42,778 nt of DNA from a virus (Duplodnaviria; Heunggongvirae; Uroviricota; Caudoviricetes). Each line of letters begins with the position of its first letter. The first letter of the stretch is position 1. The DNA is taken from the IMG/VR virus record IMGVR_UViG_2541047878_000002, positions 1 to 42,778 of that record; one strand, given 5' to 3'. Shown in pieces: positions 1,331 through 40,972 of this stretch. Under the pieces are notes generated by a model. It searched no databases and was not told the origin of the DNA. It worked only from the letters and a program-made list of their open reading frames with translations. The translations under genes were made by a program, and so were the position numbers.

Positions 1331-1345
1331 GCTTTTTTATACTAA
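1331..1345. repeat. attL core (lambda O core) followed by lambda-like P' arm
   Basis: gcctgc|GCTTTTTTATACTAA|gttggcattataaaaaagcattgcttatcaatttgttgcaacgaacaggtcactatcagtc… reads as B-O-P' of phage lambda as recalled. Confidence 0.9.
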
Positions 1346-1418
1346 GTTGGCATTATAAAAAAGCATTGCTTATCAATTTGTTGCAACGAACAGGTCACTA
1401 TCAGTCAAAATAAAATCA

Positions 1419-2489
1419 TTATTTGATTTCAATTTTGTCCCACTCCCTGCCTCTGTCATCACGATACTGTGATGCCATGGTGTCCGACTTATGCCCGAGA
1501 AGATGTTGAGCAAACTTATCGCTTATCTGCTTCTCATAGAGTCTTGCAGACAAACTGCGCAACTCGTGAAAGGTAGGCGGATCCCCTTCGAAGGAAAGAC
1601 CTGATGCTTTTCGTGCGCGCATAAAATACCTTGATACTGTGCCGGATGAAAGCGGTTCACGACGAGTAGATGCAATTATGGTTTCTCCGCCAAGAATCTC
1701 TTTGCATTTATCAAGTGTTTCCTTCATTGATATCCCAAGAGCATCAACATGCAATGTTGTTGGGATGGCAATTTTTACGCCGGTTTTGCTTTGCTCGACA
1801 TAAAGATAGCCATCTACGATATCAGACCACTTCATTTCGCATAAATCCCCAACACGCTGCCCGGTAACAACAGCCAGTTCCATTGCAAGTCTAAGCCAAC
1901 ATGGTGATGATTCTGCTGCTTGATAAATTTTCAGGTATTCGTCAGCCGTAAGTCTTGATCTCCTTACCTCTGATTTTGCTGCGCGAGTGGCAGTGACCGG
2001 GTTTGTTGTTATATGGCCTTCAGCTATTGCCTCTCGGAATGCATCGCTCAGTGTTGATCTGATTAACTTGGCTGACGCCGCCTTGCCCTCGTCTATGTAT
2101 CCATTGAGCATTGCTGCAATTTCTTTTGTGGTGATGTCTTCAAGTGGAGCATCAGGCAGCCCCCTCCTTATTGCTTTAATTTTGCTCATGTAATTTATGA
2201 GTGTCTTCTGCTTGATTCCTCTGTTGGCGAGGATTTTTTCGTAGCGATCAAGCCATGAATGTAACGTAACAGAATTATCACTGTTGATTCTCGCTGTCAG
2301 AGGCTTGTGTTTGTGTCCTGAAAATAACTCAATGTTGGCCTGTATAGCTTCAGTGATTGCTATCCTCCTGTCTCGGCCTAATCCAAACTCTTTACCCGTC
2401 CTTGGGTCCCTGTAGCAGTAATATCCATTGTTTCTTATATAAAGATTAGGGGGTAAATCCCGGCGCTCATGACTTCGCCTTCTTCCCAT
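1419..2489 (-). CDS. int: Tyrosine integrase, lambda Int type
   Basis: 356 aa, N-terminus MGRRRSHERRDLPPNLYIRNNGYYCYRDPRTGKEFGLG matches recalled lambda Int; adjacent to attL and reading toward it. Confidence 0.95.
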   Translation of the reverse strand: MGRRRSHERRDLPPNLYIRNNGYYCYRDPRTGKEFGLGRDRRIAITEAIQANIELFSGHKHKPLTARINSDNSVTLHSWLDRYEKILANRGIKQKTLINYMSKIKAIRRGLPDAPLEDITTKEIAAMLNGYIDEGKAASAKLIRSTLSDAFREAIAEGHITTNPVTATRAAKSEVRRSRLTADEYLKIYQAAESSPCWLRLAMELAVVTGQRVGDLCEMKWSDIVDGYLYVEQSKTGVKIAIPTTLHVDALGISMKETLDKCKEILGGETIIASTRREPLSSGTVSRYFMRARKASGLSFEGDPPTFHELRSLSARLYEKQISDKFAQHLLGHKSDTMASQYRDDRGREWDKIEIK

Positions 2490-2685
2490 TTTTGATCCTC
2501 TTCAAAAGGCTACCTGTTACTGGTCGATTTAAGTCAACCTTTACCGCTGATTCGTGGAACAGATACTCTCTTCCATCCTTAACCGGAGGAGGGAATATCC
2601 TGCACTCGCGTACCCATCGACGAACTGTTTCAAGGCTTCTTGGGCGTCGCTGGCGTGCGTTCCACTCCTGAAGTGTCAAGTACAT
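2467..2685 (-). CDS. xis: Excisionase, lambda Xis type
   Basis: 72 aa MYLTLQEWNARQRRPRSLETVRRWVRECRIFPPPVKDGREYLFHESAVKVDLNRP…; overlaps int start by 23 nt as in lambda. Confidence 0.9.
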   Translation of the reverse strand: MYLTLQEWNARQRRPRSLETVRRWVRECRIFPPPVKDGREYLFHESAVKVDLNRPVTGSLLKRIKNGKKAKS

Positions 2686-2775
2686 CGCAAAGTCTCCGCA
2701 ATTACACGCAAGAAAAAACCGCCATCAGGCGGCTTGGTGTTCTTTCAGTTCTTCAATTCGAATATTGGTTACGTC

Positions 2776-3087
2776 TTATTCGATGCGCACTCCTGGTATT
2801 TCGCCTTTTGATATTGCGAAGTCATAAATTTGCGCAGCACTATACCCATCTCGCATCCATGAATCTAATGCGCGAATAGCCTCGCTACGCTTTTTATCTT
2901 CTCTCTCATTTTTGATATCAACGAGGACATCAACGCAATTAAGGCAAATGTGGATTTTGTCCTTACATTCGATCATGGCGGCTTTACCATGATTTCCGCC
3001 ACACAGTGAGCATAAATCTTCAGGGTCTGGCTGGTATTTCTGTAACGTTAGATGGTTGAATGTTGAACAGGCCATAATCATCTCCAT
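2776..3087 (-). CDS. Hypothetical Cys-rich early-left protein (CxxC…CxxC, possible zinc ribbon)
   Basis: 103-aa ORF co-oriented with the pL operon; motifs CSLCGG…CLNC. Confidence 0.45.
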   Translation of the reverse strand: MEMIMACSTFNHLTLQKYQPDPEDLCSLCGGNHGKAAMIECKDKIHICLNCVDVLVDIKNEREDKKRSEAIRALDSWMRDGYSAAQIYDFAISKGEIPGVRIE

Positions 3088-3146
3088 AAAACAAAACTCG
3101 CCGTAGCGAGTTCAGATAAAAGAAATCCCCGCGAGTTCGAGGATTG

Positions 3147-3470
3147 TTATTCATTGCCGATATTCACCTTTATCGCGAACACCTTTACCGGTTTATCGCC
3201 GAAGTGCGGATGTGTGATTGTCTTGATTTCATATCCGTCATACGGAACATCAATTCTACGGCTGGAATCGTCGCGCTTCGGATATCCCTTTGTGATAATC
3301 AGGCGATCATACTCCCGGAACATAATTCGCTTATTCCAGTAGTCATTACACAGGCGATACTCTTCCGTTTTCTCTCTGCGAATCATGGCATCGAAGTATT
3401 CACCTTTAACGGCAAGTTGTAGGTTAGCCAAGGTTAACCTCCTGCGGCGGTTCTGCTGCAAAATACGCAA
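3147..3470 (-). CDS. Hypothetical protein, possibly DUF3850/ASCH-like
   Basis: 107 aa; pattern LQLAVKGEYFDAMIRREKTEEYRLCNDYW resembles the recalled ASCH/DUF3850 signature (YF.A...G.KT.E.R.ND); family assignment from memory only. Confidence 0.45.
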   Translation of the reverse strand: MRILQQNRRRRLTLANLQLAVKGEYFDAMIRREKTEEYRLCNDYWNKRIMFREYDRLIITKGYPKRDDSSRRIDVPYDGYEIKTITHPHFGDKPVKVFAIKVNIGNE

Positions 3471-4185
3471 TACCTTTATCCCAGATGGATTTTATGGTCG
3501 TCCATGTGACTGGTACTTTAATTTCAATCCGCCCGCTACCGTCACAGGTATCGCAATCATCATCGCCAAAGCATTCCGGGCAGCTGATAAACGTAGTTTC
3601 TGAAAATTCACCGGATAGCGCACCCTTAGCGCCGTTCTCGGCTGTTAGTCTCTTCGGCACCATGACCCAACCATCCGGAGTTACCGGAGAGTTGCCATTT
3701 ACATCGAAGTTTGGCTCTGCGTCCTGAACCAGGAGGATGTAACCATTCTTGGCAGTATCAAGTTCTAACGCCTCGGTGACGGTGCCGAAATAGCGATTAC
3801 CTAAATCAGCATCACAAGTGCTTACATCAATGGAAACTTCCATGCCTTCGATTAATTCTGGCAAGTTGTAAGTTTGGCTTACAGGTTGGCTACCCTGAAG
3901 CATGGAGGCGCGGTGACACCAGATAATCCAGCCAAGCGCCATATCCCATGCCATGTATTCTCTATCGCCATTTTTTGCCCTACGGCGATCTACAGATTCC
4001 CCGAAACGCTTCTCCATAAATAATTCATAGGCTGCTCGTTCATCCGATACTGCTGCCAGTGATGCCAGTGCAATTCGTGCCAGTTCTTCCGCTTCTTCTG
4101 CTGGAAGTACAACGTTGCTACCCGGTCCGTATGTTTCGCGCCACTGCTTGATTGTCAGCAGTCGCTCTTTGGTAATAGTGGTCAT
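3424..4185 (-). CDS. Hypothetical early-left protein with C-terminal Cys cluster
   Basis: 253-aa ORF, C-terminal CPECFGDDDCDTCDGSG motif; no family recognised. Confidence 0.5.
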   Translation of the reverse strand: MTTITKERLLTIKQWRETYGPGSNVVLPAEEAEELARIALASLAAVSDERAAYELFMEKRFGESVDRRRAKNGDREYMAWDMALGWIIWCHRASMLQGSQPVSQTYNLPELIEGMEVSIDVSTCDADLGNRYFGTVTEALELDTAKNGYILLVQDAEPNFDVNGNSPVTPDGWVMVPKRLTAENGAKGALSGEFSETTFISCPECFGDDDCDTCDGSGRIEIKVPVTWTTIKSIWDKGIAYFAAEPPQEVNLG

Positions 4186-4195
4186 TTGTTATGCC

Positions 4196-4435
4196 TCAAT
4201 ACACGAAATCTGTTTTAAATTCATGGTTACATTCTGGACAGCATGTTTCGTAACCTTTTATTTCTTCACATGCCTGTTTAGCTCCAGAAAACTCCCAGAA
4301 ATCTGGATCACAAAGCAGATCGAAATTGTGACCACATTTGGGACATTCGGTATCAAGTGACAGACTCCAGTAGGCAGTGGTGTTTTTATCCATCTCACTC
4401 TCCTTTGATGCGAATACCAGCGGCGCGGGAATCAT
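4196..4435 (-). CDS. Small zinc-ribbon-like hypothetical protein
   Basis: 79 aa with CPKCGH…CCPECNHEF (two CxxC pairs). Confidence 0.45.
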   Translation of the reverse strand: MIPAPLVFASKESEMDKNTTAYWSLSLDTECPKCGHNFDLLCDPDFWEFSGAKQACEEIKGYETCCPECNHEFKTDFVY

Positions 4436-5168
4436 TCCATCGCTTTACTTCTTCACGAATTACGTCAATGCATTCTTTCGAATCCATTAGGTAATCTTCA
4501 TCAAAAAGCCTTTCCTGTTCGTTTTCTATCGCAACAATGATTGCTTCAACTAACTTTTGTGCCTGAGAACCACTTTCTAACTCTGCAATGCGCTTCTCTG
4601 CGGCTTCCAGCTTCTCGCGCATATCGTCAACGTACTCGACCAGAGATCCGCCAGCAGGAATTTCGCACTCCTCGACCAGTTGGAAGTAGATATCAGCTGC
4701 GGCCCGTGTGTTGCTATGCCTAGCGTCGCCCATCTCACCTTCACGAAGAGCATCGCGTTCGGCGGTAAGATTGGCTATTTTGCTGTCTTTGCCTTCCAGC
4801 TCAACACGCAGCTTCCCTACCGTTAGCGCAATATCCTCGTTCTCCTGGTCACGGCTTTTGATGTATTGCTGGTTTCTTTCCCGTTCATCCAGTAGTGCCA
4901 GCACGGTAGCCGGATTGGCTGCGGCGATGAATTCAGCATTGGCCTGCTGTTCTATTTGGAAATCTTCATCGAAACCGCTTTCTGGATGCGCTCCTTCAAT
5001 TCTGCAAATGGGAATATATCCAGCAGCCTCGCGGTGAATTAGTGCATCATCACCATCAAATCGGCTCTCCCCATATTCGAGCGACCACTCACCACACGTT
5101 GCTTTTTCTGCCTTGGCACGCAGCGCCTGATAGTCAATCTTGCTCACTGGCTGCCTCCTTTGCGCCAC
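4395..5168 (-). CDS. Ead/Ea22-like acidic coiled-coil protein
   Basis: 257-aa acidic ORF with coiled-coil segment, in the early-left region; an internal GTG at 5147 with an AGGAGG SD is a more likely start than the ORF-track start. Confidence 0.5.
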
Positions 5169-5307
5169 ATCGCATTCAGATATTTGTTTTGATTCACTGA
5201 TGGAAAAGAATTTCTCTTAAGCAATTCCTCTCTCGATGGCATTGGTTTTACGCGTTGGCGAATAATCATTTCTGCCGGAAGAATGCCGGGATTGTATGCA
5301 AGTCCTC

Positions 5308-5589
5308 TCATGATTTACTCTCCACGAACTGGTCAACGGCCATGCTAAGTGACACACCTAAAGTCTCGATATGCTGCTGAATATCCTGTAGCGTCTGCGC
5401 CTGGGATAACAGGATTTCACGGTTGCATAATTCTTTAACCAGATGCTCAAACTTGCTGTAATAACCGATACGGCTTAGTGTTTCTTTCCCTGCATTCTCG
5501 CCTTCTTTGATAATTCCTCTTTCATTAAGAATCAGGTCGTGTTTTGTTCCAGTAATAACGTATTTTCCTAGGTCGATGTTTAGCTTCAT
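5308..5589 (-). CDS. Hypothetical protein
   Basis: 93-aa ORF co-oriented in the pL operon. Confidence 0.45.
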
Positions 5590-5605: not shown

Positions 5606-5926
5606 TTAATTTATTCGTATGCCTGCTCTTTCTTCATCGAGTTTTTTTAGCTTGTATCGCATAGCTCTTACTGAATAAATTGAGCGGCAGGTTGCAATTG
5701 CTATTTCTTCTGCGGAGAACTTACCGAAAAGTGATACTTCGGCTCTTGTCCAGCGTCTTCCACGAAGTCGGCTAACAATGTCAGCGCCAATCCTTGTTGC
5801 TTTCGCCATAACTGCTTTTTCAGTCCTTTCCAGTTTTTCAGCGATAACTTCAACTGGCATTGTCGCCGCTACTTCGCGCAAGAAATCGACTTCCCATTTC
5901 TCCCATGGAGTCTTTTTCATAGGCAA
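5606..5926 (-). CDS. Hypothetical protein
   Basis: 106-aa ORF co-oriented in the pL operon. Confidence 0.45.
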   Translation of the reverse strand: MPMKKTPWEKWEVDFLREVAATMPVEVIAEKLERTEKAVMAKATRIGADIVSRLRGRRWTRAEVSLFGKFSAEEIAIATCRSIYSVRAMRYKLKKLDEERAGIRIN

Positions 5927-5931
5927 TACCG

Positions 5932-6420
5932 TTATTTGATAAGAAGTGAAGGTTTCCCAACTTTGAGTTGAGCGCCGGGGATATTTATTCCTGCTTTTAG
6001 TTGGTGTTTGATTGCCAGTTTGTCGGCTTTAATTGTCGTTTCAAACTCAACGTATTCAGGAGGAAGGGCGCTTGAGTCGATTATTTCTACAGTTTCTGAC
6101 GGTTTGCGGATTGTTACCTGGTGAATACCTGCTCGAATCTTTTTCTTGCCAACCATTTCAAGCGATGACGCTATATACGCCATAATGCTGTCAATCTTAT
6201 TTTGAATTACTGCTGCTCGTTCATTCAGTGACTTTGCCTCGTCCTTGAGGCGTTCAGCATAACCAGATTCATTTTTAATAATGGCAAGAAGTTGCTCTAT
6301 TTTATCGGTAAATTCTCCTTCCATTCCTTCTATTGTGTCAGCAATCATCTCTGGCTCTAAATCTGAATCCATCAGCTTTGCGTATTCATTGGCTATTTCA
6401 TACAGTTTGCTCACTGGCAA
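5932..6420 (-). CDS. Gp157-family protein (recombination-module accessory protein usually next to RecT/Sak)
   Basis: 162 aa, immediately downstream of RecT with overlapping ends; family call from memory. Confidence 0.55.
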   Translation of the reverse strand: MPVSKLYEIANEYAKLMDSDLEPEMIADTIEGMEGEFTDKIEQLLAIIKNESGYAERLKDEAKSLNERAAVIQNKIDSIMAYIASSLEMVGKKKIRAGIHQVTIRKPSETVEIIDSSALPPEYVEFETTIKADKLAIKHQLKAGINIPGAQLKVGKPSLLIK

Positions 6421-7309
6421 CCTCCAGTTTCGCTTTGCATTCTATGTAAATGGCTTGTACGTTCTGCTGCAATTTCATTCCAGATGTCAGGCGATATGCT
6501 TCTGCAAAATATCGCTTCAAATCATCCATGTTTTCAGCCTGAGCCATTTCATCACAAAGAAGTTGTGCTTTATCCGTTATTTCCTGCTGGCGTTTCCGTT
6601 CATCTTCGCGGATATCTTCCTCTGATTTGTGCGGCATAACTGGTTCAGTCCAAACACCTTCTTCTTCGTTTAGTACGTGAATAGCACTATCAAGACGTGA
6701 TGCCTTAGGCCAATACTTGCTTGCACGCTTTACGACCGTCTTTCGCGCCATCTCATTCCAGTGATTTACCCATGGTCCTTTATCGCTGAATGCCGCCTTG
6801 CTTGTTTTCCTTACAGCCTCAATTTCAGCCAGACTCATCTCTTCCGTTAGATAATCACCTGCTGGCGTCTTAACTGTGCAGTAAACGCCAACGATATCAC
6901 CACGATCACCGAAGGCGTTGTATTTATGGGTTGGTGCTTTATCAAGCCCGTTTGACTCATAGGTATCGTTAGCATGAACAAGTTTTGCCTGACCCCATGA
7001 GATAACACCAGACTCCATTGCAATATGGAGCAATCCCATATAACTGATATCAAGGCAAACCATGCCGTCGCGCGGAACCAGATAAGCCAGTTTGCTGGCC
7101 GGGTTTAAGGTGATGCCGATCGCCGCAACATTGATGATGGCGTTCTGTGCGCTGGTTGGATTTGCCAGTGCCGTTTTAGCCAGGTAATCATTTTTCTGGA
7201 AATACTGAATTGCAAACTGGCTTTCCTTAGCCCATGTCACCGTCTGTTCAGTCAATGCTCCGCAGAATAACTGCTCTTGCTGTTTAACGAATTCAACGAT
7301 ATTGCTCAT
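6398..7309 (-). CDS. recT: RecT-family single-strand annealing recombinase
   Basis: 303 aa with RecT-like core (…LNPASKLAYLVPRDGMVCLDISYMGLLHIAMESG…GDRGDIVGVYC…); occupies the lambda bet position in the pL operon. Confidence 0.85.
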   Translation of the reverse strand: MSNIVEFVKQQEQLFCGALTEQTVTWAKESQFAIQYFQKNDYLAKTALANPTSAQNAIINVAAIGITLNPASKLAYLVPRDGMVCLDISYMGLLHIAMESGVISWGQAKLVHANDTYESNGLDKAPTHKYNAFGDRGDIVGVYCTVKTPAGDYLTEEMSLAEIEAVRKTSKAAFSDKGPWVNHWNEMARKTVVKRASKYWPKASRLDSAIHVLNEEEGVWTEPVMPHKSEEDIREDERKRQQEITDKAQLLCDEMAQAENMDDLKRYFAEAYRLTSGMKLQQNVQAIYIECKAKLEVASEQTV

Positions 7310-7617
7310 GCTGCTTCTCCAAAAATGTGTCTGCGTTTGAATATTGCGAAGGCATATTCAGCCTTAACTCTTTCGGTTATTGCATCCCAGAACCATTCAG
7401 CGGCTTTTTCCTGATAGTTACAGTCATCATCTTCCAGCCAGTCGATAGCGTCCTTAGTGTGTTCATCTGGTTTATATGAGCGAAGCATTTCGCTTATTGG
7501 GTCGCAACGTTTGCAGAGGCGATCAACTTCACTGTTGATTCGTTCGTAATCTTCATCAGTAAAACTTGCGATTATTTGCGATATTTCACGCTTATCATTC
7601 AGAGTCAGAATCATCAT
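7306..7617 (-). CDS. Hypothetical acidic protein at the position of lambda gam / P22 abc
   Basis: 103-aa ORF directly upstream of recT in the pL operon; no family recognised. Confidence 0.45.
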   Translation of the reverse strand: MMILTLNDKREISQIIASFTDEDYERINSEVDRLCKRCDPISEMLRSYKPDEHTKDAIDWLEDDDCNYQEKAAEWFWDAITERVKAEYAFAIFKRRHIFGEAA

Positions 7618-7698: not shown

Positions 7699-7851
7699 TC
7701 ATTTCCTGCGATACCACGGAAGGTTGATAGCTGATTTCATCGCTTTATTTGCTTCAAGCCACATTTTGGAATCACCAATAAATCTGGCTATTACTGCTTT
7801 GTTTTGTGCTGCACGAAGCATCTGGTGATTGATGGTTATTTCATTGCGCAT
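7699..7851 (-). CDS. kil: Kil-like small protein (candidate host cell-division inhibitor)
   Basis: 50-aa ORF MRNEITINHQMLRAAQNKAVIARFIGDSKMWLEANKAMKSAINLPWYRRK; position just after cIII and the FIGD-containing core resemble recalled lambda Kil; below the ORF-track threshold, translated by hand. Confidence 0.45.
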   Translation of the reverse strand: MRNEITINHQMLRAAQNKAVIARFIGDSKMWLEANKAMKSAINLPWYRRK

Positions 7852-7970
7852 AACGCCTCCAGTTGTTTCTTTGCTGCTCTGATTAATTGTTTAACTCGGC
7901 GTGATAATTCAGATTCGAGCGGGTAGAAAGCGGACATGACGCCGCTACCCGCGAGCTGAAAGTGCATCAT
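7836..7970 (-). CDS. cIII: CIII-like protein (FtsH inhibitor)
   Basis: 44 aa MMHFQLAGSGVMSAFYPLESELSRRVKQLIRAAKKQLEALCAMK, similar to recalled lambda CIII (…AIAGWPVAGCPSESLLERITRKL…); GGAGTTA SD upstream; in-frame internal start of ORF-track entry 7836..8075. Confidence 0.65.
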   Translation of the reverse strand: MMHFQLAGSGVMSAFYPLESELSRRVKQLIRAAKKQLEALCAMK

Positions 7971-8032
7971 GGGTAACTCCTTATATTTGATTGCATAACG
8001 AAAACGCCTCTCGTGAAGCGTTATTGGTATGC

Positions 8033-8060
8033 ATATAAAAAGGCCCTCACACTGGAGGGC
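8033..8060 (-). terminator. Intrinsic terminator in the pL operon (tL1-like)
   Basis: minus-strand RNA …GCCCUC-cagugu-GAGGGC-CUUUUUAUAU; 6-bp GC stem plus U-run, between the AT-rich ORF and cIII. Confidence 0.5.
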
Positions 8061-8164
8061 AAAGAAGATTTCCAATAATCAGAACAAGTCGGCTCCTGTT
8101 TAGTTACGAGCGACATTGCTCCGTGTATTCACTCGTTGGAATGAATACACAGTGCTTATTCGTA

Positions 8165-8635: not shown

Positions 8636-8690
8636 ATCTCACCTCAAATAAGTGGTTTGCTGCGAAAAAGTAAAACAATGATATTCACTT

Positions 8691-8960
8691 CTATTTGTCA
8701 TCGTGTAAGTGACGCAGGTTATTAACTCGCGGCCAGTAATATTTTGGCTTGGCACGAGATCCGGGTCTTGGACCTACACAAACTATATAGCTCTCTTCTT
8801 TCCTCGGAAGGCCAGGTGCATCTAGCAGACGGCCTAGTTCGAATTTTTTTACGTTGACACCAGGAGGAATCACCTCGACGATAAACCCGATTTTTACCTT
8901 CGTTACACCGTTTGATGAGCTTGACCATTTAACTTCATCGTTCAATTTGAACTTCATCAT
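8691..8960 (-). CDS. Hypothetical pL-operon accessory protein (89 aa)
   Basis: MMKFKLNDEVKWSSSSNGVTKVKIGFIVEVIPPG…; start trimmed to the ATGATG at 8955-8960 so it does not overlap N; immediately downstream of N. Confidence 0.5.
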   Translation of the reverse strand: MMKFKLNDEVKWSSSSNGVTKVKIGFIVEVIPPGVNVKKFELGRLLDAPGLPRKEESYIVCVGPRPGSRAKPKYYWPRVNNLRHLHDDK

Positions 8961-32720: not shown

Positions 32721-34558
32721 TGAAAGTAACTGCAAACGGTAAGACATTTACCTTTCCTGATGGTACGAGCACCGAAGATATTGGCACCGCCATTGATGAG
32801 TATTTTGCTGGTCAGGCTGTTCAGCAACAAACAGTTAATCAGGCCAATAATGCACCAACACGGGAAGAACCATCATTGATGCAACAAGCTGGCGATTGGC
32901 TCACTGGTGGTCAAAGTGCAGGGCAAATTGCAGAACAGGCTGGTCGTGGTCTGGTAAACATACCATTTGACGTATTGCAGGGTGGCGCAAGTCTGATTAA
33001 TGCAATCAGTCAGGGGCTTGGTGGGCCAAAAGTTTTGGATGATGTTTATCGTCCAGTAGACAGACCGACAGACCCCTACGCTCAAGCTGGAGAAACAATT
33101 GGCGGGTATTTAGTTCCAGGAATTGGAACGGCAGGAAGCATGGCTATTGGATCACTGGCAGAGGCCGCAAATCAGAAAGGCGATTTCGCACAAAATGCAG
33201 CTAAAAATGCCGGAGTTAACCTTGCCGCTCAGGGTGTTCTTTCCGCAGCAGCAAAGGGAATAGGGCGTGGAATAACGGCTATAAAAGGTGATATTGCGCC
33301 AGAAGTGGCGAAGAAAATTGCCACTTCAGAATCGATGGGCGTGACACCAATGACATCTGATGTTATCCCGCCGAAAAATGCTTTCACTCGCGGCCTTACT
33401 CAGGATGCCGAGGGGGCTTTGCTCGGGACAGGCTCAAAGCGAGCGGAGCAATATGCAACGCGTAGTAAGCTGGTAAGCAATTATTTTGACCGTTTTGGTG
33501 AGTACAACCCTGATGATGTGGTGAAATCTCTGACCACCACGTTAAGGGGGCGGAAGGATGCTGCTGGCGCTGTTATCAATGACGTCACCAATAAAATGGG
33601 TAATGCCGCAGTTGATACCACAAATACCATGAATGCTCTGAATACAGCGATCGCAAGACAGGAACGGCTTGGGACTTCAGCCAATCAAAGCCTGCTTACA
33701 TCCTTGCGTAACCTACGTGAAGAATTAGCAAACCCTGCAACTGATTTGGATGTTACGTTTGATCTCTTGCGTCAGCACAGAACAGCATTTAGATCTAATG
33801 TTCAGGGAGATTCTATGGTCTTCCCCAACCAGGCAAAAGCAGCTACCAATATGGTAGAGAATGCAATGTCAAAAGACCTTCGTAACGCAGTTGCTAAAAA
33901 CCTCGGTGCATCAGACGCAGCAAAATACCTTAAAGCAAATTCAGATTATGCAAACGTTTATAATAAGGTGCTTAATAAAAACATTGCTAACAAGCTCAAC
34001 AAGGCAAGCAGTGAAGCCAGTCCTGAACTTATAAATACCGTTGTATTAAGCAGAAAACCATCTGACGTGAAACGAATCTGGAGCGCATTGGATGATAAAG
34101 GGAAAGATGCTATGCGTGCAGCTTACGTCAGCAAAATAGCGGAAAAGGCCGGTGATTCTCCAGCCAAGTTCATCACTGAAGTTAATAAGCTGAAATCTCA
34201 GTCAGGTGGTGAAATTTACAACACTATTTTTTCTGGAAAGCACATGAAAGAGCTTGATTCTCTTCATGAAGTTCTACAGCAAACAGCAAGGTCAGACACC
34301 GCAAATGTAGTAACTCAGACGGGGCAATCGCAAGCCAACCGGATAAGGACGATTGGCGCAACTGCGACTCTTGGCGTATCAATGGGGCTTGAGGCTGGCT
34401 TTGGTGCAATGATGCGTTTGTATGAGTCTAAAGCAGCAAGGAATGCTCTCTTACGTTTGGCAAACACCAAAGCAGGAACACCAGCCTATGAAAGAGCGCT
34501 GAATAACGCCGCAAATGCCATCAGACCAATACTTGCCAATGATGCAACTGATCGCTAA
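32717..34558 (+). CDS. Ejection protein, gp16 position
   Basis: 613 aa; size and order match P22 gp16. Confidence 0.7.
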
Positions 34559-34579: not shown

Positions 34580-35218
34580 TTAATTGCGAATGGAATCGCG
34601 GAACTCTTTGCTTGATAGAAAAGGATCTGTTCTCCTTAACTCATCATAGTTTTTATTAAACTTTCTTGCTTCACCTGGGTATCTGTTGAACAAAACATTG
34701 CAGAAAAAAGAGAGCAATAACTCACATATGAATGCTAATACCCTGAAAAATAAAGGTATAAAAAGAAGGGAAGGTTCATTGAAGTCTCTATTCCAAACAA
34801 AATAGACAATCATCCCGACATACCAAATTGATATCCCTATACTGATGATTGTTCCAACAGAGGTAACTACGATCCCGATTAAGTCGGACAGTCTGTTTGC
34901 CAGTAACTCATTTGAGTATCTTGCAATCATATACCGCCAACATTTTGCAATATCATCATGATCTGTAGAGTCTTCTGGAATAGCTAGGCTTCTACATATT
35001 GAAGTAGCTCTTTTTTTCTCAACTCTTTTTGAGAGCCATCCATTAAAGAGATACATCAACACCTGCGTTGCTATTCCTGCACCAAGTGATATCAAAGACA
35101 TCCCCAAAAATCGCCATCCTGGAGATAGTGACTGGTACTGCCAAACAAAAAAAATTAAAAAACCCAATGAGCCTATGACATAGGCTGATGTATCGCTATA
35201 TATATCTATTTTTTTCAT
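34580..35218 (-). CDS. AT-rich integral membrane protein (about 4 TM helices) at the P22 sieA position; candidate superinfection-exclusion or abortive-infection effector
   Basis: 212 aa from ATG 35218 with AAGGAG SD 10 nt upstream (ORF-track start is a GTG at 35251); strongly hydrophobic segments; low GC; directly downstream of the Mnt-like RHH gene on the same strand. Confidence 0.55.
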   Translation of the reverse strand: MKKIDIYSDTSAYVIGSLGFLIFFVWQYQSLSPGWRFLGMSLISLGAGIATQVLMYLFNGWLSKRVEKKRATSICRSLAIPEDSTDHDDIAKCWRYMIARYSNELLANRLSDLIGIVVTSVGTIISIGISIWYVGMIVYFVWNRDFNEPSLLFIPLFFRVLAFICELLLSFFCNVLFNRYPGEARKFNKNYDELRRTDPFLSSKEFRDSIRN

Positions 35219-35268: not shown

Positions 35269-35520
35269 TTATGTGTCTTTTGGGATTCTATCCAGTAACT
35301 CGTTGGAAATTTTATCAAGTAAAGATTTTATTTGTTTAAGATCTAATGATTTGTCTACTGATGAGACGTCAGATGATAACGCATCCTCAAGAATTTGAAC
35401 TATCTCTGAGTTCATAGATCGACCGTTTCGTTTAGCCCTTTCCGCAATAGCACTACGCATGCCGTCAGGCATTCTAACCGTAAATCTTTCTATGAAATTT
35501 GATTCGTCTTTTTCTGACAT
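35269..35520 (-). CDS. Mnt-like ribbon-helix-helix repressor (paralogue 1)
   Basis: 83 aa from ATG 35520: …RFTVRMPDGMRSAIAERAKRNGRSMNSEIVQILEDALS…, RHH core nearly identical to recalled P22 Mnt (…NGRSMNSELLQIVQDALS…); the hydrophobic N-extension of the ORF-track entry was rejected. Confidence 0.65.
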   Translation of the reverse strand: MSEKDESNFIERFTVRMPDGMRSAIAERAKRNGRSMNSEIVQILEDALSSDVSSVDKSLDLKQIKSLLDKISNELLDRIPKDT

Positions 35521-35569
35521 TTTCTTATTCGCAAGGCATATGAGCAATAAAAAACACAGTAGCATCATA

Positions 35570-35624
35570 TTGACATTATGAGCAATGGCATCATAATGGT
35601 GTCATGACATCATGGTGATGTCAT
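35570..35624 (+). promoter_or_regulatory. Divergent promoter/operator region: candidate Pant-like promoter plus 21-bp perfect palindromic operator
   Basis: -35 TTGACA 35570-35575, 16-bp spacer, -10 CATAAT 35592-35597; palindrome ATGACATCA-TGG-TGATGTCAT at 35604-35624 at the predicted transcription start. Confidence 0.5.
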
Positions 35625-35640
35625 TATGACGGAGATATTG

Positions 35641-35817
35641 ATGATGAGCGATGTTCTTTACAGTGGTCGTAAAAGTCAGAGTTTCCAGCTTCGTTTGCCA
35701 GCGCGAATGAAGGAGGAGATCAGACGCGTAGCTGAAATGGATGGAATTTCTATCAACTCTGCGATTGTGCAGCGACTGGCTAAAAGCCTGAGAGAGGAAA
35801 GAGCTAATGCCCAGTAA
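35641..35817 (+). CDS. Arc-like ribbon-helix-helix repressor
   Basis: 58 aa from ATG 35641 (GGAG SD 6 nt upstream; ORF-track start 35626): …QSFQLRLPARMKEEIRRVAEMDGISINSAIVQRLAKSL…, RHH fold as in P22 Arc. Confidence 0.6.
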   Translation: MMSDVLYSGRKSQSFQLRLPARMKEEIRRVAEMDGISINSAIVQRLAKSLREERANAQ

Positions 35818-35890
35818 AAATAGTGAAGCCCGGAAGTGCGCGAACACAAACCGGGCCTCTATGTCAGTAACCGTACTCAAGGAAACTAAC

Positions 35891-36529
35891 ATGAATATTG
35901 TAGCAAAATCAGATTATAACTTCCAAGGATTCACTTTTAACCCTGTAACAGAGGGCGGGTCTATCTGGTTTACCTCCACCGAACTAGCTAAGGCTCTCGG
36001 CTATAAAAAAACTGATGCCATCAGCCAAATTTATGCCCGTAATGCTGACGAATTTTCCGACTCAATGTCATTGACCCTCAATATGAAGGTCAACGGAATA
36101 AACAATAGCTTACGTAACAAATCGGTCAGAGTTTACTCACTCCGAGGCGCTCACTTGGTGGCGATGTTTGCTTCTACGCCCAAGGCCAAAGAGTTCCGCC
36201 GCTGGGTGCTGGATATTTTGGATCGGCAGGCAGAATGCTCACCGATTGCAAAACAGTTTACTGACGAAGAACTGGTTAATCTCTGCTACTTACAATTGTG
36301 GATGGAGAAGAGTCAACAAATGTGCAAACACATCTACCCAGGAATGAAGCAAATTGGTTCTGAGCTTTCTGGAAGGATTTACGATATTGCATATGAGACT
36401 CGCTACATGTCAGAAGAAACCAAGAAATCACTTCTTCGTGAAGTGAAGAATCTTGATACCAACAATTTTGTCGTAAAGAACGCTCAGCCAATGCTGGCAA
36501 AACTGCGCGGCGAGGAATGGATTCATTGA
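35891..36529 (+). CDS. Bro-N domain antirepressor-like protein
   Basis: 212 aa from ATG 35891 (AAGGA SD); N-terminal Bro-N-like segment …IWFTSTELAKALGY…VRVYSLRGAHLVAMFASTPKAKEFRRWVLDIL…; downstream of arc as ant is in P22. Confidence 0.6.
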   Translation: MNIVAKSDYNFQGFTFNPVTEGGSIWFTSTELAKALGYKKTDAISQIYARNADEFSDSMSLTLNMKVNGINNSLRNKSVRVYSLRGAHLVAMFASTPKAKEFRRWVLDILDRQAECSPIAKQFTDEELVNLCYLQLWMEKSQQMCKHIYPGMKQIGSELSGRIYDIAYETRYMSEETKKSLLREVKNLDTNNFVVKNAQPMLAKLRGEEWIH

Positions 36530-36617
36530 TTGGTGCGCCGGACGGCGCAAAAAGAAAACCGCCAGTGTGCTGCTGGCGGCCTATGTCACACCCTTACTAC
36601 CACATAAGGAATGCCTA

Positions 36618-37346
36618 ATGACTTTTAAGAATGTAGCAAACATCGGATCCGTTGTCACGGATAAAACCATTGACAGCCAGCGCCTGCTTGAGATGGTCAA
36701 TCATGCTCGTAGACAGTGCGGGGAAAAAGAAGTCCGCAATAACGACTTTATTGCACGCATTAAGGATGAACTTGAAGGTGAGCACTACGAAATTTTCGTA
36801 GTTCAAAAATCAAACAAGACAAGTTCTGAAAAAGTTGTTATGTCAATTAAGCAAGCCCTTCGAGTGGCTGCTCGTGAATCTAAAGCTGTTCGCCGCTCAC
36901 TGGTAGACCAACTTGAAAGTATGCAAGAAGCGCACATTAAAAGCGGTAAATCAGCGAGTGGACTTGTTGAGTATCGTCAAGCGCGAACATTGAAAATGAC
37001 GGTTGAAGCTGTTACCAATCTGTTCGATCTGATGCCAAATCTTGCGCCTGAGGCAAAGCAGACAGCGGCAGCAAGTATAATCAACCCGCTCGTTGGTTTT
37101 AATGCAATACCTCTTCCGGCAATAGAAGAGCATTACTACTCAGCAGGGGAGGTTGCAGAGCAGCTTGGAGTAACGGCCAACAAGATTGGTCGCATTGCTA
37201 ACGCAAACAACCTCAAAACTGAGCAGTACGGGAAGTTCTTCCTGGATAAATCGGCGCATTCCAGCAAACAGGTAGAGGCGTTTCGTTACAATTCTGAAGG
37301 CGTTAAAGCACTACAACACCTGCTACATGGCTCAAATGTGGCGTAA
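36618..37346 (+). CDS. Hypothetical protein, possibly a second antirepressor-type protein
   Basis: 242 aa from ATG 36618 with AAGGA SD; co-transcribed with arc-like and Bro-N genes; no confident family call. Confidence 0.45.
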   Translation: MTFKNVANIGSVVTDKTIDSQRLLEMVNHARRQCGEKEVRNNDFIARIKDELEGEHYEIFVVQKSNKTSSEKVVMSIKQALRVAARESKAVRRSLVDQLESMQEAHIKSGKSASGLVEYRQARTLKMTVEAVTNLFDLMPNLAPEAKQTAAASIINPLVGFNAIPLPAIEEHYYSAGEVAEQLGVTANKIGRIANANNLKTEQYGKFFLDKSAHSSKQVEAFRYNSEGVKALQHLLHGSNVA

Positions 37347-37364
37347 CATTTTATAATGAAAACT

Positions 37365-37390
37365 AAACCCGCTTAATCGCGGGTTTTTTC
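37365..37390. terminator. Bidirectional intrinsic terminator between convergent genes
   Basis: cccgc-ttaatc-gcggg hairpin flanked by A-run upstream and TTTTTTC downstream; overlaps the mnt paralogue-2 stop codon. Confidence 0.45.
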
Positions 37391-37630
37391 TTTCCTTAGA
37401 ATTTCAGCCGCAACTTCTTTTACTCGTTCCGAGATTAATGAGGCCAGCCTCTCTTCTTCATCACGATACCCGCTTACAGGTGATGGTTTGGAGAGTGATT
37501 CTTCCATCGTAGCCACAATTTCGGAATTGATAGACCTGTTATTCATTTTTGCACGCTGCTTAATCTTAGCGTGCAACTCGTGTGTAAGCCTCAAGTGGAA
37601 CTGCGCCTCATCGTATTTGCTGTACATCAT
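37373..37630 (-). CDS. mnt: Mnt-like repressor (paralogue 2, closest to P22 Mnt)
   Basis: 85 aa from ATG 37630: MMYSKYDEAQFHLRLTHELHAKIKQRAKMNNRSINSEIVATMEESLSKPSPVSGYRDEEERLAS… matches recalled P22 Mnt along its length; the ORF-track N-extension overlaps the tailspike and was rejected. Confidence 0.7.
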   Translation of the reverse strand: MMYSKYDEAQFHLRLTHELHAKIKQRAKMNNRSINSEIVATMEESLSKPSPVSGYRDEEERLASLISERVKEVAAEILRKEKTRD

Positions 37631-37762
37631 CAATGCCTCACCAAATGGGTGGAATGGCATCGTAAAACCTACTGTACAAATCAACAATCGTACCGTTTCG
37701 GTATGTAACAAATGCCAACCGTAGCCATGCTGCGGCGATTCCTTGTATCTGGAGCAAATTAA

Positions 37763-40468
37763 ATGACAGACATTACAGCCAATGTTGTAGTGAGCATGCC
37801 TTCGCAACTCTTCACTATGGCGCGTTCTTTTAAAGCCGTAGCTAATGGCAAAATTTATATCGGTAAAATTGACACTGACCCGGTAAATCCTGATAACCAG
37901 ATTCAGGTCTATGTTGGGAACGAAGATGGTTCTCACGTTCCTGTTGCACAGCCAATCGTCATCAATGCCGCTGGGTATCCAGTATATAACGGACAGATTG
38001 CCAAATTCGTAACCGTGCAAGGCCATTCTATGGCTGTTTACGATGCTTATGGCACTCAGCAGTTTTATTTCCCAAATGTATTAAAATACGATCCAGATCA
38101 GTTTGGCCCAGACTTCAAAGAGCAGTTATCTCAATCAGGAGCATACATTAATGATGATTCAAAAGGTGATGCATTAATTGGGGTAAGGCAGCCATTTACC
38201 GGGGCTGTAACTATAACTCAGCATGAAAACAATGCTCTTTTCTTAAATGTAAAACAATTCGGAGCAATTGGGGATGGGAAATATCATCCATTATCTGAGA
38301 GGTTTTCTTCAATTTCTGAAGCAAAATCCTTATATCCTTTTGTTGACTCATTATCTCAGTCAATAGACTGGGCCGCGTGGCAAGCTGCCCTTAACACAGG
38401 AAAGGTTATTTATGGTACTGATAATGCGTATGTAATAACGGATACGTTAACACCTGTTTCTGGTGGTGGGATAATTGGTCTTGGTGTGGGCAAATGGGTC
38501 TCCGGATATACTGCAACATTTGCTCCTGATATTACCACAGGGACCACATTCCTGATGTACGGGGTAGGAAATAAAAAATATACTGTAGATTGTGTTTCTA
38601 ATATGGATGTTAGTGGTGGTGTGGTTTCTAATCCATCTTCCGAAGACCCGTATACAACAACAGCACCTGCGTCATCATATGATTTATTGGATTTTACTAA
38701 CGGTGATGCTAATGGGACTACAAGAGCCACGCTTAAACCATTCTCTGCCGCAATATTGATGCCTGAGACAGGATGTGTTCGCCTTGAGAACTTTCGTGTT
38801 GTTCCATATTTCAATGGGCTGGATGGTTATAAAGACATTGCAAATACCGGTCTTGGCGATGAGTGGGATGTAGGTATTTGGTCACGTGCGTCTTTTGGCA
38901 ATGAATACCGCAATTTGCAGGTGGTTGGATACTGGCGCAAGACGGCACTTTTAAAAACGAACATTCCTGTATCTGGCACGCTGGCTGCTCAGGGCGAGGA
39001 TGAAAACTATTATCACTGTAGATTCCAGGGATTCAAGGGTGTTTCGATCCGCGCCAATGATGTATTCCGAATTACAGCGGTAACGTCCAGCACTATCGAA
39101 ATCCCATGGTCAGCAAGCCACACCTTCGAAACGTCCGGAGTTTTAAGATCTGGAGGCAGGAATTTCACTTATTCAGGATTATCCGTATCCGGTGATAAGT
39201 TAGTATTTACTGGAGTGTCTAACGCTTCTGAGGCAACAGTAGGTTCTACTATACGGCGAAATGACATAGATAACTTTGGTATGGCGGGAACGCAATTTTT
39301 CGATTGCTACATTACCAGCCTGTATCACCACACACATCTGCTTGCCACATCGCAATACCTGTCTCAACCATTCAGCCGACCATCAGAGTGTATGGAGGTT
39401 TCAGGGGAACCAGTTCGCGGTGTACAGGTACATGCAGGAACCATTCAGGGATGGGATGATGTTCTTATTCATCTGCATGACTGTGGAAATATGAACTTTT
39501 ACAGTACATATTTCGAAAGCCAGCAAGCATATGTAACTATAAATGGTGGTAATGCTATTGGTTATGGAGCACGTATGATAGCTTCCCGGCAATCAACAAG
39601 CTCATTACCATATGCAGCAGGGAATACACGAGTGCTTAGAATGGTCGGGTGCTCTGAAGGCAATGGCGTTGACTGGGGTCCTGTATTTAACAACTATACA
39701 GGAGGAAGATATAATTCTGGAGACGGTGTATTTAACCCCCGCGATGCATTTATAGACCATAAATCTCTTCCTGAGCAGTCAGGAGGTGAGTCAAGACTCG
39801 TATCACAAAAAGGAAATGCCAGAGTAGTATGTGGTGTTGGTAAAACTGTACTGCTTGGACCAACGTCAGGAGATTGTAATTTACAGAGTAATACCGGAAG
39901 TTTAAATATTAGAAGTGGGATAAGAGTAAGAGTCGGTCACGCTGATGGAACAGACTGGTGGTTGGCAGATGCTAATAAAATAGCTCCTGTTGATGATAAT
40001 GTTAAAGCTATTGGACAGCCATCAAACAGATGCTCTGTTATCTATGCAGGAACCGGGTCAATCAATACATCAGATGAAACTCTTAAAACAAGATATGATA
40101 TTATTAATGCAGAGCGTGATGCCGCTATTGAAATAAAGTCAGTCATCTATAAATTTAAATTTAATGACTCAATTAATCACAAAGGAATTGAGTCGTCCAG
40201 GTATCATTTTGGCGTTGGCGCTCAAACCGTAGGGGATATTCTTAGAAAGCATGGTTTAAATCCTGAGCAATATGCTTTTTGGTGTTACGATGAATGGCCT
40301 GACGTATGGGATGAAGAGGTGATAACTGAAGAGAGCACAGATCCTGATACAGGTGAGAAAATTTATTCTCAATATAAAACAGGAGATATGATTCTTGTAA
40401 AAAAAGCAGGAGGACGCTACGGAATTCGTTATGACGAATTGGCTATGTTTATATTAATGGCAATGTAG
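37763..40468 (+). CDS. Tailspike: P22 gp9-type head-binding N-domain + divergent receptor-binding domain + C-terminal intramolecular-chaperone-like domain
   Basis: 901 aa; residues ~1-115 match recalled P22 gp9 ([11 protein letters not shown]…[22 protein letters not shown]…); AT-rich distal part; C-terminus carries …NTS|[10 protein letters not shown]… (S770/D771). Confidence 0.85.
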
Positions 40469-40486
40469 TTGCAATAAATGCAGTAT

Positions 40487-40516
40487 ATCCCGCATAAAAA
40501 TGCGGGATTGTTTTTA
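40487..40516 (+). terminator. Intrinsic terminator after the tailspike
   Basis: atcccgca-taaaaa-tgcgggat hairpin followed by TGTTTTTA. Confidence 0.55.
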
Positions 40517-40775
40517 TCTGGTGTATTTATGAATTTTAAGTAAATTTTAGTATTGATTACTGCATCGCAGTTAAAGCCTCATTACCTATGAGGCAAAACT
40601 GAGACACACAAGGCTTTGCACTGGATTGCAAGGCTTTGTGCTATCTGAGATATAGCAATGTTGGTTGCTCCACCTTTTCATCAAGCCAGTCCGCCCACCA
40701 CTGCATCATTTCTCTGCGCTTATCGAGATACTGAGCATGGTTGTAAATTCAACTAACCCAGTGAGTTGACAAAAA

Positions 40776-40812
40776 ATTAGCGCAAGAAGAAAAAAAATCA
40801 CCTTGCGCTAAT
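40776..40812. promoter_or_regulatory. sib/tI-like hairpin of the lambda b-region (int retroregulator), separated from int in the prophage
   Basis: perfect 11-bp inverted repeat attagcgcaag…cttgcgctaat with 15-nt A-rich loop, ~150 bp left of the att core, matching recalled lambda sib-region sequence. Confidence 0.45.
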
Positions 40813-40957
40813 GCTCTGTTACAGGTCACTAATACCATCTAAGTAGTTGATTCATAGTGACTGCACATGCTGTGTTTTGCAGTATTATGTAGTCTATTAT
40901 TTAGACCAAAACCATCATAACACATTGATATTGATGATTTTTCTTGTTTCTCATTCA

Positions 40958-40972
40958 GCTTTTTTATACTAA
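40958..40972. repeat. attR core (GCTTTTTTATACTAA) preceded by lambda-like P arm
   Basis: identical to attL core; upstream 40815-40957 matches the recalled lambda P arm (tctgttacaggtcactaataccatctaagtagttgattcatagtgactgca…); downstream acttgagcg is the host B' arm. Confidence 0.9.

Follow-up and report, generated by a model that had tools for sequence, protein, structure and literature searches.

A mosaic P22-like prophage occupying lambda attB in an E. coli-type chromosome, with ybhC and ybhB on either side

What lies between ybhC and ybhB in IMG/VR virus record IMGVR_UViG_2541047878_000002, and does it amount to one complete phage? The stretch analysed (positions 1 to 42,778 of the record, 42,778 nucleotides; 'the window') is a segment of E. 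coli-type chromosome holding a prophage, which a preliminary description had placed at 1331–40972 and characterised as a module-level mosaic of lambda-like, P22-like and phage 21-like parts. An exact-match search finds the 15-bp core of the lambda attachment site, GCTTTTTTATACTAA, exactly twice in the window (1331–1345 and 40958–40972); the sequences outside both copies are the two halves of E. coli attB, which the junctions reconstitute. Since the proposed interval runs precisely from the attL core to the attR core, with ybhC and ybhB as its flanks, the lambda attachment site is occupied by a prophage of 39.6 kb. This prophage very probably represents one complete temperate P22-like (Lederbergvirus) phage genome, placed by a lambda-type integrase (Int) at lambda attB between ybhC and ybhB. 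The features of the boundaries are as follows.

1–1284, minus strand: ybhC, chromosomal gene left of the prophage
1331–1345, plus strand: attL copy of the lambda core, with the B arm to its left and the P′ arm (1346 to ~1420) to its right
41063–41539, minus strand: ybhB, chromosomal gene right of the prophage
41648 to the window end at 42778, where it runs off, plus strand: gene for a TnpB/IS605-OrfB-type RNA-guided endonuclease, beyond ybhB

The window was compared with seven reference phages (lambda, P22, phage 21, Gally, JEP4, Louie and Kapi1) by blastn for DNA and by protein identities, together with PHROG, Pfam, PDB, PADLOC and Rfam. One and the same reference switches from >95% identity to no detectable similarity at sharp boundaries, and the best match changes abruptly many times along the element. 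Switches of this kind could not be produced by chance and thus indicate module-level mosaicism, and the mosaic observation is borne out by module-by-module nucleotide (nt) and amino acid (aa) identities to lambda, P22 and phage 21. When the whole prophage was compared with these three phages and their relatives the module map held, but not as a direct lambda × P22 × 21 hybrid; each block is 93–99% identical to blocks of E. coli Lederbergvirus phages or prophages. In Botstein's modular theory, lambdoid phages are mosaics of exchangeable modules. Mosaicism of lambdoid phages, P22-like phages included, is described by Casjens and Thuman-Commike (2011), as cited in bioRxiv 10.64898/2026.05.19.726188. 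A mosaic is the normal state of these phages, and that of the present prophage is correctly recognised but ordinary.

The lambda-like part of the mosaic lies mainly at the two ends, where it forms the integration module.

1419–2489, minus strand: lambda-type integrase, 356 aa (98.6% aa identity to lambda Int, 99.4% to JEP4 Int)
2467–2685, minus strand: lambda-type excisionase Xis, 72 aa (97.2% aa identity to lambda Xis, two substitutions)
2698–2776, no strand: conserved linker marking the end of the lambda-type block, upstream of xis
40605–40750, minus strand: relic of an older integration module (hairpin 40605–40642 and 26 C-terminal int codons, 40671–40750)
40767–40972, plus strand: lambda-type P arm with the tI/sib hairpin (~40767–40830), P1, P2, an H1-type site and the attR core (40958–40972)

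Positions 1331–2776 (P′ arm, int and xis) match lambda 27724–29169 at 97.9% nt identity (blastn), and 40767–40976 match the lambda P arm (27534–27742) at 87.7%. Int differs from lambda Int at only five of its 356 residues and carries the lambda Arm-DNA-bind_1 and Phage_integrase domains of Pfam. The catalytic residues (R212, K235, H308, R311, H333, Y342) are all as in lambda, and those governing the choice between lambda and HK022 cores (N99, S282, G283, R287, E319) match lambda. In the alignment of the P arm, P1, P2 and the H1-type site do not differ from lambda; divergence is greatest in the X/H2 region, where a match to the integration host factor (IHF) consensus is apparently kept, as judged by eye. 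The stem of the tI/sib hairpin is kept and its extended fold is as in lambda (−29.4 kcal/mol, z about −4.5, versus −28.4 for lambda). Together with cII (see below), these matches confirm the lambda-like int/xis, P and P′ arms, sib and cII of the preliminary description.

A remnant of a different integrase separates the tailspike terminator from the lambda-type P arm. The minus-strand translation of the relic, IYNHAQYLDKRREMMQWWADWLDEKV, equals the C terminus of Louie Int, an argW-type, Kapi1/Louie-like integrase of 385 aa. Positions 40605–40750 are collinear with the tailspike-int spacer and int 3′ end in the related contigs L015, L016 and L018, and lambda-type sequence begins at 40767. The alignments of JEP4 and Gally also extend across the relic. 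In the RefSeq record of the prophage of UPEC_U013, nothing is annotated from ybhB to the tailspike gene except a 108-bp open reading frame (ORF) marked incomplete (N terminus missing), which overlies the relic according to the 99.6% DNA alignment. The place of the relic beside the lambda-type P arm indicates that an ancestor of the subgroup exchanged its argW-type int-attP-xis cassette for a lambda-family one (sib-attP-int-xis), and, as far as sequence can tell, the relic is the scar of that replacement.

The hairpin at 40605–40642 (~38 bp) has counterparts near the att/int end in lambda (27473–27510), P22 (21173–21217) and phage 21 (27097–27137), and is also found in argW-type P22-like prophages. 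The integrases of all these carriers are unrelated, and the hairpin is a candidate terminator or recombination linker.

In the early control region the P22-like part of the mosaic adjoins a lambda-type cII.

9596–9643, minus strand: nutL, with boxA GCTCTTTAACA (9633–9643) and a boxB hairpin (9596–9616)
9680–9808, minus strand: pL/OL region and c2 terminator (promoter-like site 9718–9690; terminator-like stem 9810–9791)
9809–10459, minus strand: c2, prophage repressor of 216 aa, LexA-like self-cleaving type
10460–10539, plus strand: OR1–3, pR and pRM (pR-like TTGACT-16-GATAAT)
10540–10725, plus strand: cro
10733–10743 (boxA) and 10759–10778 (boxB), plus strand: nutR
10834–11127, plus strand: lambda-type cII, 97 aa

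The c2-cro region of P22 matches 9627–10746 at 84.6% nt identity (blastn). C2, with HTH_3 and a full Peptidase_S24 domain in Pfam, is 92% identical in aa sequence to P22 C2, 97% to phage 21 cI, 99.5% to Gally and 100% to JEP4; for Cro the values are 95% (P22) and 97% (phage 21). Ahead of cro, three predicted 18-bp operators of P22 type have the form A-TTAAG-N4-CTT-A-T, in agreement with the P22-like c2/cro immunity proposed earlier. nutL and nutR have the same boxA and an identical boxB hairpin. The lambda cII match covers 10817–11123 (96.7% nt, blastn) and the protein has a single substitution compared to lambda CII (99% aa identity); on the opposite strand an oop-like terminator is seen as a terminator-like stem at 11103–11076.

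A second set of regulators, together with a superinfection exclusion gene, is found in the immI region ahead of the tailspike.

34580–35218, minus strand: SieA homologue, 212 aa, downstream of the ribbon-helix-helix (RHH) repressor gene on the mnt strand
35269–35520, minus strand: RHH repressor
35641–35817, plus strand: Arc-like protein
35807–36529, plus strand: antirepressor 1, with Bro-N and P22_AR_C domains
36618–37346, plus strand: antirepressor 2
37373–37630, minus strand: Mnt orthologue, adjoining the tailspike gene

The label 'mnt/arc' given to this region was partly apt: Mnt and an Arc-like protein are present, but the set comprises three RHH genes and two antirepressor genes. Regulatory signals include divergent promoter-like sites at 35564–35597 (as P22 Pant/Pmnt) and a two-way terminator at 37365–37386, and the block is 99% identical in contigs L015–L019. 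The SieA homologue matches the PHROG SieA-like family (E 2e-20) and P22 SieA (27.7% over 148 aa, E 2e-19); it had no match itself in the local Pfam copy, while in related contigs that are 99% identical in DNA at this place PF26849 (SIEA) is recorded on the 212-aa gene that follows an identical gp16. Two ORFs were dropped as spurious, one at 35602–35892 (minus strand; no family) and one at 37373–38026 (minus strand), of which only the C-terminal 85 codons are the Mnt gene. Opposite the start of antirepressor 2 (ATG at 36618) lie, on the minus strand, a terminator-like stem (36582–36556) and a promoter-like site (36658–36630), both consensus matches only; these antisense signals (36548–36660) recall the layout of the P22 sar antisense RNA.

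The virion module surrounds immI and provides the most extensive likeness to P22.

19991–26620, plus strand: orf80, TerS (20263–20757), TerL, portal, scaffold and coat
27235–34558, plus strand: tail and ejection genes gp4, gp10, needle with knob (gp26), gp14, gp7, gp20 and gp16, in P22 order
37763–40468, plus strand: tailspike, 901 aa (PHROG tailspike families)

P22 virion genes match 20534–34518 in P22 gene order at 69–78% nt identity (blastn), and all 13 homologues are present in the order 3-2-1-8-5-4-10-26-14-7-20-16, then immI and the tailspike. Products from orf80 to coat are 72–100% identical in aa sequence to P22 and 82–99% to Louie, although the 100% match of TerS to P22 spans only the first 54% of the protein. 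The 22-bp sequence of the P22 pac site recurs exactly at 20536–20557 within TerS, as a predicted packaging site. Tail and ejection gene sizes are those called in related prophages. In the tailspike, the N terminus is of the P22/Sf6 head-binding type, the receptor-binding body is distinct, and a chaperone-type domain forms the C terminus (matches to N- and C-domains in PDB); residues 1–120 match the N-terminal domains of P22, Sf6 and CUS-3 in PDB (E 1e-43 to 3e-85). The UPEC_U013 tailspike gene, of equal length, lies within the stretch corresponding to 37718–42740 at 99.6% DNA identity. Gene order, pac sequence and head-binding domain together bear out the P22-like podovirus virion module of the preliminary description.

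The third component, related to phage 21, extends from the late antiterminator to the lysis genes.

16864–17382, plus strand: phage 21-family Q (84.6% aa identity to Q21; 10 residues longer)
~17360–17400, plus strand: pR′ with two direct repeats in the position of the Q-binding element (QBE), from alignment to the annotated phage 21 pR′/QBE
17446–17520, plus strand: tRNA-Asn(GTT)
17526–17601, plus strand: tRNA-Thr(TGT)
17719–18431, plus strand: phage 21-type pinholin S (71 aa) and signal-anchor-release (SAR) endolysin R (165 aa)
18428–18523, plus strand: 95-bp insert between R and Rz, with a 31-codon hydrophobic ORF and an ATGA overlap at both ends
18520–18987, plus strand: Rz, 155 aa, with embedded Rz1 (18740–18946)

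Phage 21 sequence from Q through R (Q, pR′, terminator, tRNAs, S and R) matches 16857–18434 at 90% nt identity. The transcribed leader of pR′ and its terminator are identical to phage 21, whereas the repeats in the QBE position are ATTAGCCA/TTTAGCCA here and ATTGAGCA/AATGAGCA in phage 21, with the layout otherwise kept; Q and its binding-site repeats may have co-varied. A tRNA pair between pR′ and the holin gene is an arrangement also seen in phage 21, Kapi1, SPN9CC and BTP1, and an Rfam scan gave nothing beyond tRNA-Asn and tRNA-Thr. S (95.8% aa identity to phage 21 S; Pfam 'P21 holin S') retains the dual start MKSM, and R is 97.6% identical to R21 across all 165 residues, including the N-terminal hydrophobic stretch, and matches the R21 crystal structure (PDB 3HDE, E 3e-109). 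The earlier designation as a phage 21-like lysis cassette applies to these two genes but not to Rz/Rz1, which follow the 95-bp insert and are of Kapi1/JEP4 type (95–97% identity, versus 60% and 44% to phage 21; 60% to lambda). At its start the 31-codon ORF overlaps the stop codon of R, and at its stop the start codon of Rz. This R-insert-Rz junction is also found in SEN22, Emek, PS34 and others, some records annotating a hypothetical protein there, while the insert is absent from phage 21 and SPN9CC. A frameshift in Rz, suspected from a long ORF start at 18391, was rejected: the true ATG is at 18520 and Rz is intact.

Are these parts, then, the product of a recent cross? A first-generation hybrid with lambda, P22 and phage 21 as direct parents would be in keeping with the identities of int-xis (97.9% nt) and cII (97%) to lambda and of Q through R (90%) to phage 21. 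Virion and immunity regions, however, are only 69–85% identical in nt sequence to P22, versus 93–99% to E. coli Lederbergvirus phages and prophages, and the lambda-type int-att junction, together with a P22-type tailspike and the relic, is already present in JEP4, Gally and UPEC_U013. As this junction with its relic pre-exists there, the combination is older and circulates within the group, and a direct origin from the three type phages is hardly credible.

Among these relatives, JEP4 (MT740315; an isolated Lederbergvirus; PMC8425383) already combines lambda Int with a P22-like virion. It shares the lambda-type Int, Xis and the att region including the integrase relic (int-xis at 98% nt), the block from c2 to the helicase (98% nt), gp10 and the needle (95% nt), and the antirepressors and Mnt (93–98% nt). 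JEP4 differs in having another head module (portal and coat ~25–34% aa identity), lambda-type holin and endolysin genes where this prophage has S21/R21, a C2-like repressor in place of the SieA-RHH-Arc unit of immI, another tailspike body and another ea region. Gally (OV696608; PMC9928086), an active prophage of E. coli LF82, aligns to 63% of the left half at a mean nt identity of 95% and shares the RecT/Mu Gam block, immunity, replication and nin genes, but has an HK022-type Int (75% aa identity) at torS-torT, another head module, lambda-type lysis genes and only Mnt in immI. Gally and JEP4 both match 9570–13811 at 98% nt identity, and the head module of Louie matches at 97%.

The prophage of UPEC_U013 (NZ_CP058596; P22-like, ybhC-ybhB) shares the integration site and the chromosomal flanks including TnpB, with ends and tailspike 98.8–99.6% identical, but has a head module, ejection genes, immI, lysis genes and N-to-O region of other types. 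Like ends with an unlike interior point to block replacement between prophages at one locus, and a TnpB gene beyond ybhB in both genomes suggests that the host lineage carries TnpB next to the att site. Integration next to ybhC has been shown experimentally for the P22-like phage phiHS3 (bioRxiv 10.64898/2026.05.19.726188).

The three type phages are more distant. P22 (NC_002371) shares the architecture, virion order, exact pac sequence, c2/cro type (92–95% aa), gp12 helicase (90% aa) and the immI concept (Mnt, Arc, antirepressor and a distant SieA), but its homologous stretches are only 69–85% identical in nt sequence; it has a thrW-type Int and N, Q and lysis genes of other types, and its gtrABC, sieB, ral, erf and abc are not in this prophage. 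Lambda (NC_001416) shares the att core, arms, tI/sib, int, xis and cII at ~88–98% nt identity and the chromosomal attB, with only short patches elsewhere (ninE-ninF, part of Rz, small linkers); its siphovirus virion genes, cI/rex, exo/bet/gam, O/P, Q, S and R are absent. Phage 21 (OL657228) shares Q-pR′-terminator-tRNAs-S21-R21 (90% nt), cI (97% aa), the C-terminal part of N and one ea ORF, but differs in its QBE repeats, the lack of the 95-bp insert, other Rz/Rz1, a lambda-like siphovirus virion and an icd-type Int.

Exchange of blocks is also evident in wider comparisons. An identical gp16 is found in 125 blocks; all five contigs shown have the SieA-RHH-Arc-Ant-Ant2 unit of this prophage behind it, but other tailspikes and an argW-type integrase. 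Six contigs with an identical WDGH-domain protein (see below) share the head module but vary in lysis cassettes, ejection genes and immI contents. No phage record, and none of 5,426 complete E. coli genomes, has this combination over 80% of either half. The prophage adds a further case to a well-known kind of phage, whose key combinations pre-exist in isolated phages.

Repeated lambdoid sequences are known to cause mis-assembly and no single public record spans the element, which raises the question of an artefact joining pieces of at least two prophages of one genome. The gene order is, however, canonical for lambdoid/P22 phages, with no duplication or inversion, both ends are precise att junctions reconstituting attB, and many internal junctions are spanned by independent records: JEP4 and Gally (9570–13811), L013 (19922–31084), L018 and L019 (31824–37330) and UPEC_U013 (37718–42740). 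Mis-assembly is accordingly judged extremely improbable.

Three short linkers may account for some of the joins. The segment at 2698–2776 is 94–100% identical in lambda, P22, Gally, Kapi1 and Louie despite differing flanks; that at 8033–8155 is 93–100% identical in six of the seven references (lambda, phage 21, Gally, JEP4, Louie and Kapi1), a terminator being annotated at the matching place in the phage 21 record; and that at 13742–13811, the terminator region before ninB, is common to lambda, phage 21 and Louie. Because these linkers are common to phages with unrelated neighbouring genes, they are plausible homologous crossover points. The mosaic would have arisen by repeated block exchange among enterobacterial lambdoid phages and prophages, some joins by homologous crossover at such conserved terminator-containing linkers and the abrupt joins by illegitimate events retained by selection. 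One such exchange would have swapped an argW-type int-attP-xis cassette for the lambda-type one, leaving 26 codons of the old int beside attR.

Is the phage still functional? Called genes cover 92% of the element, with regulatory regions accounting for the gaps, and every listed gene is free of internal stops. Genes match their viable-phage homologues and the PHROG profiles in length, with no truncation among the essential ones; the gene complement is intact, as it had first appeared. Coherent pairs are formed by Int specificity with lambda core and arms, by boxB in nutL and nutR, by the operators, by the QBE-position repeats with a Q21-family Q, and by pac; the Peptidase_S24 domain of C2 counts on the same side. 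Since cis and trans partners match and ORFs are intact, an intact SOS-inducible phage appears to be the most likely state, and a viable one is plausible.

Many E. coli prophages are defective. A cryptic prophage, complete-looking but no longer inducible through silent defects (for instance missense changes, poor excision or a regulator that does not fit its site), could explain a P arm only 87.7% identical to lambda, QBE repeats unlike those of phage 21 and the loss of one small ORF from immI. It is improbable given the intact ORFs, full length compared to viable phages, and the high coding density (92%), the intact catalytic and specificity residues of Int with P1, H1-type and P2 sequences identical to lambda, the presence of nut, operator, pac and QBE-position elements in matched pairs, and a repressor that the isolated phages Gally and JEP4 share at 99.5–100% identity.

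Some points nevertheless weigh against an intact, inducible phage. Compared to JEP4, L015, L016, L018 and L019, ~250 bp with a 73-codon ORF have been lost between antirepressor 2 and mnt (37322–37360) and replaced by 39 bp, with the two-way terminator close behind. Divergence in H2/X (P arm 87.7% overall) may mean that efficient excision is not guaranteed, inactivating point mutations that leave ORFs open would escape sequence inspection, and, as no public phage record or complete E. coli genome has this combination over more than 75% of either half, direct proof of viability cannot be borrowed from an identical isolate.

For an intact, SOS-inducible phage, the cycle can be proposed from these parts. 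C2, LexA-like by homology, would bind the P22-type operators and keep pL and pR off, while in immI three RHH repressors would silence the two antirepressors, with the SieA-type exclusion protein co-expressed. SOS-triggered self-cleavage of C2 would release N-dependent early transcription via the matched nutL and nutR. Int and Xis would excise the phage, and in the circular genome tI/sib would be rejoined to int, restraining int expression. Replication by an O-like initiator and a DnaB-type helicase would be followed by late antitermination at pR′ by the Q21-family protein, headful packaging from the exact P22 pac site into a P22-type capsid, and lysis by a phage 21-type pinholin, SAR endolysin and lambda-type spanins (the Rz/Rz1 shared with Kapi1/JEP4).

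The remaining early genes are divided between a leftward arm, from the xis linker to N, and a rightward replication and nin region.

2776–5589, minus strand: patchwork 'ea' accessory region (PHROG and Pfam matches)
3147–3470, minus strand: phage 21-like ORF, phrog_625 (TTG start, reading frame uninterrupted)
4395–5168, minus strand: Ead/Ea22-like gene within the ea region
5606–7617, minus strand: recombination block, with a phrog_323 regulator-like gene, Mu Gam-like gene (5932–6420), RecT (6398–7309) and phrog_3486
7699–7851, minus strand: kil (PHROG Kil, 2e-35)
7836–7970, minus strand: cIII-like gene (PHROG CIII, 1e-11)
8033–8155, no strand: terminator-containing linker (terminator-like stems 8060–8043 and 8022–8003)
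8165–8960, minus strand: pL accessory slot, at the lambda ral/sieB position (156-aa protein, 8165–8635; ~89-aa protein, 8691–8960)
8966–9271, minus strand: N-type antiterminator, 101 aa (PHROG N-like, 3e-34)
11150–13745, plus strand: replication module, with orf90, O-like initiator (11425–12372) and DnaB-type helicase (12369–13745)
13818–16867, plus strand: nin region, with NinB, NinE, NinF, a Roi/antirepressor-like gene (15311–16033), phrog_131, RusA and NinH

Segments of the ea region separately match Kapi1, phage 21 and Gally. Proteins of the recombination block are 96–100% identical to those of Gally, Kapi1 and Louie, and the RecT/Mu Gam DNA is 96–98% identical. N is phage 21-like in its C-terminal two thirds (87.5% to N21 residues 34–97) and 91% identical to Gally N, with an arginine-rich N terminus of its own type. 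In the long nutL-N leader, a 39-codon ORF, MLDIITNPILGGLVTTFAIGFGFTIWSEVDDWMWERKNK (9312–9431, minus strand), has a plausible ribosome-binding site; this stretch of the leader has no match among the seven reference phages, and a 66-codon ORF in the N leader has none in Pfam. Replication proteins are 98–99.6% identical to those of Gally, JEP4 and Kapi1, the initiator belonging to Pfam Phage_rep_O and the helicase being 90% identical to P22 gp12 (80% nt for the gene). The phrog_131 gene in the nin region is labelled an HNH endonuclease, and its UPEC_U013 counterpart is DUF1364 in RefSeq.

Does the prophage carry defences of its own? The lack of rexAB and sieB noted in the preliminary description was confirmed, tblastn of the window giving no match at E ≤ 0.01 for lambda RexA, RexB or SieB or for P22 SieB. 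Missing rexAB between repressor and pL is normal for a P22-type immC, expected and not notable, and sieB is not at the repressor-pL position in lambda or P22. No homologue of ral, gtrABC, bor or lom was found in the window. The further suggestion that defences reside in the immI and pL cassettes has support for immI, which has the SieA homologue, but not for the pL genes. These match phrog_1636 and phrog_11941, families without an assigned function, and no PADLOC or Pfam family; the 156-aa protein is 100% identical in 933W-type Shiga toxin (Stx) phages and phage CurroJimenez. The 1-kb bin at 8001–9000, containing most of the slot, has the lowest GC content of the early-left arm (39%). A search for promoter-like sites gave none belonging to the genes at 8165–8960 themselves, and their position between N and the terminator gives them the look of pL-driven early lytic genes, which they probably are, and not of lysogenic-conversion genes.

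Two other variable slots carry cargo genes.

19209–19688, plus strand: Tad2-like (DUF2829) protein of 159 aa in the moron slot downstream of the spanin genes; N-terminal extension of 74 aa
26664–27257, plus strand: WDGH-domain protein, 197 aa (Pfam PF25311, E 1e-39), between coat and gp4 in the slot of P22 orf69

The Tad2-like domain (Pfam PF11195, E 3.7e-21) matches Gp34.65 in PDB (8SME/8WJE, E 3e-25, residues 75–159), making the protein a candidate anti-Thoeris cyclic-nucleotide sponge, and hence a putative counter-defence gene. Its Louie homologue (67% aa identity) is annotated as an anti-CRISPR. A WDGH protein identical to that of the prophage is present in 372 index blocks, in the coat-gp4 slot in all six contigs shown, and ST104 orf54, sharing the slot, is 61% identical. 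Phages of Listeria, Bacillus, Streptococcus and cyanobacteria have the domain too, its D/H/E/R positions being invariant; single-sequence and profile searches of PDB gave no significant match (best E 0.3). AlphaFold2 models built from the single sequences of the WDGH and 156-aa pL proteins were unusable (mean pLDDT 37 and 42, respectively). PADLOC gave no match for ten accessory proteins. There is a small chance that the variable-slot cargo (WDGH protein, the two early-left genes, the hydrophobic ORFs by N and between R and Rz, and the immI circuit) includes a new exclusion, counter-defence or regulatory function.

Gally is a ciprofloxacin-inducible, highly produced podovirus that performs lateral transduction (PMC9928086). 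The host of the present prophage probably carries an active pac-type podophage at its gal-bio site, and the prophage could, like Gally and P22, laterally transduce the neighbouring chromosome. Only the uncharacterised cargo genes and the integrase relic merit a second look: the prophage draws attention to a few accessory genes that are common in E. coli prophages, and it offers a clean example of an integration-module swap, with the 26-codon relic of the old int still in place.

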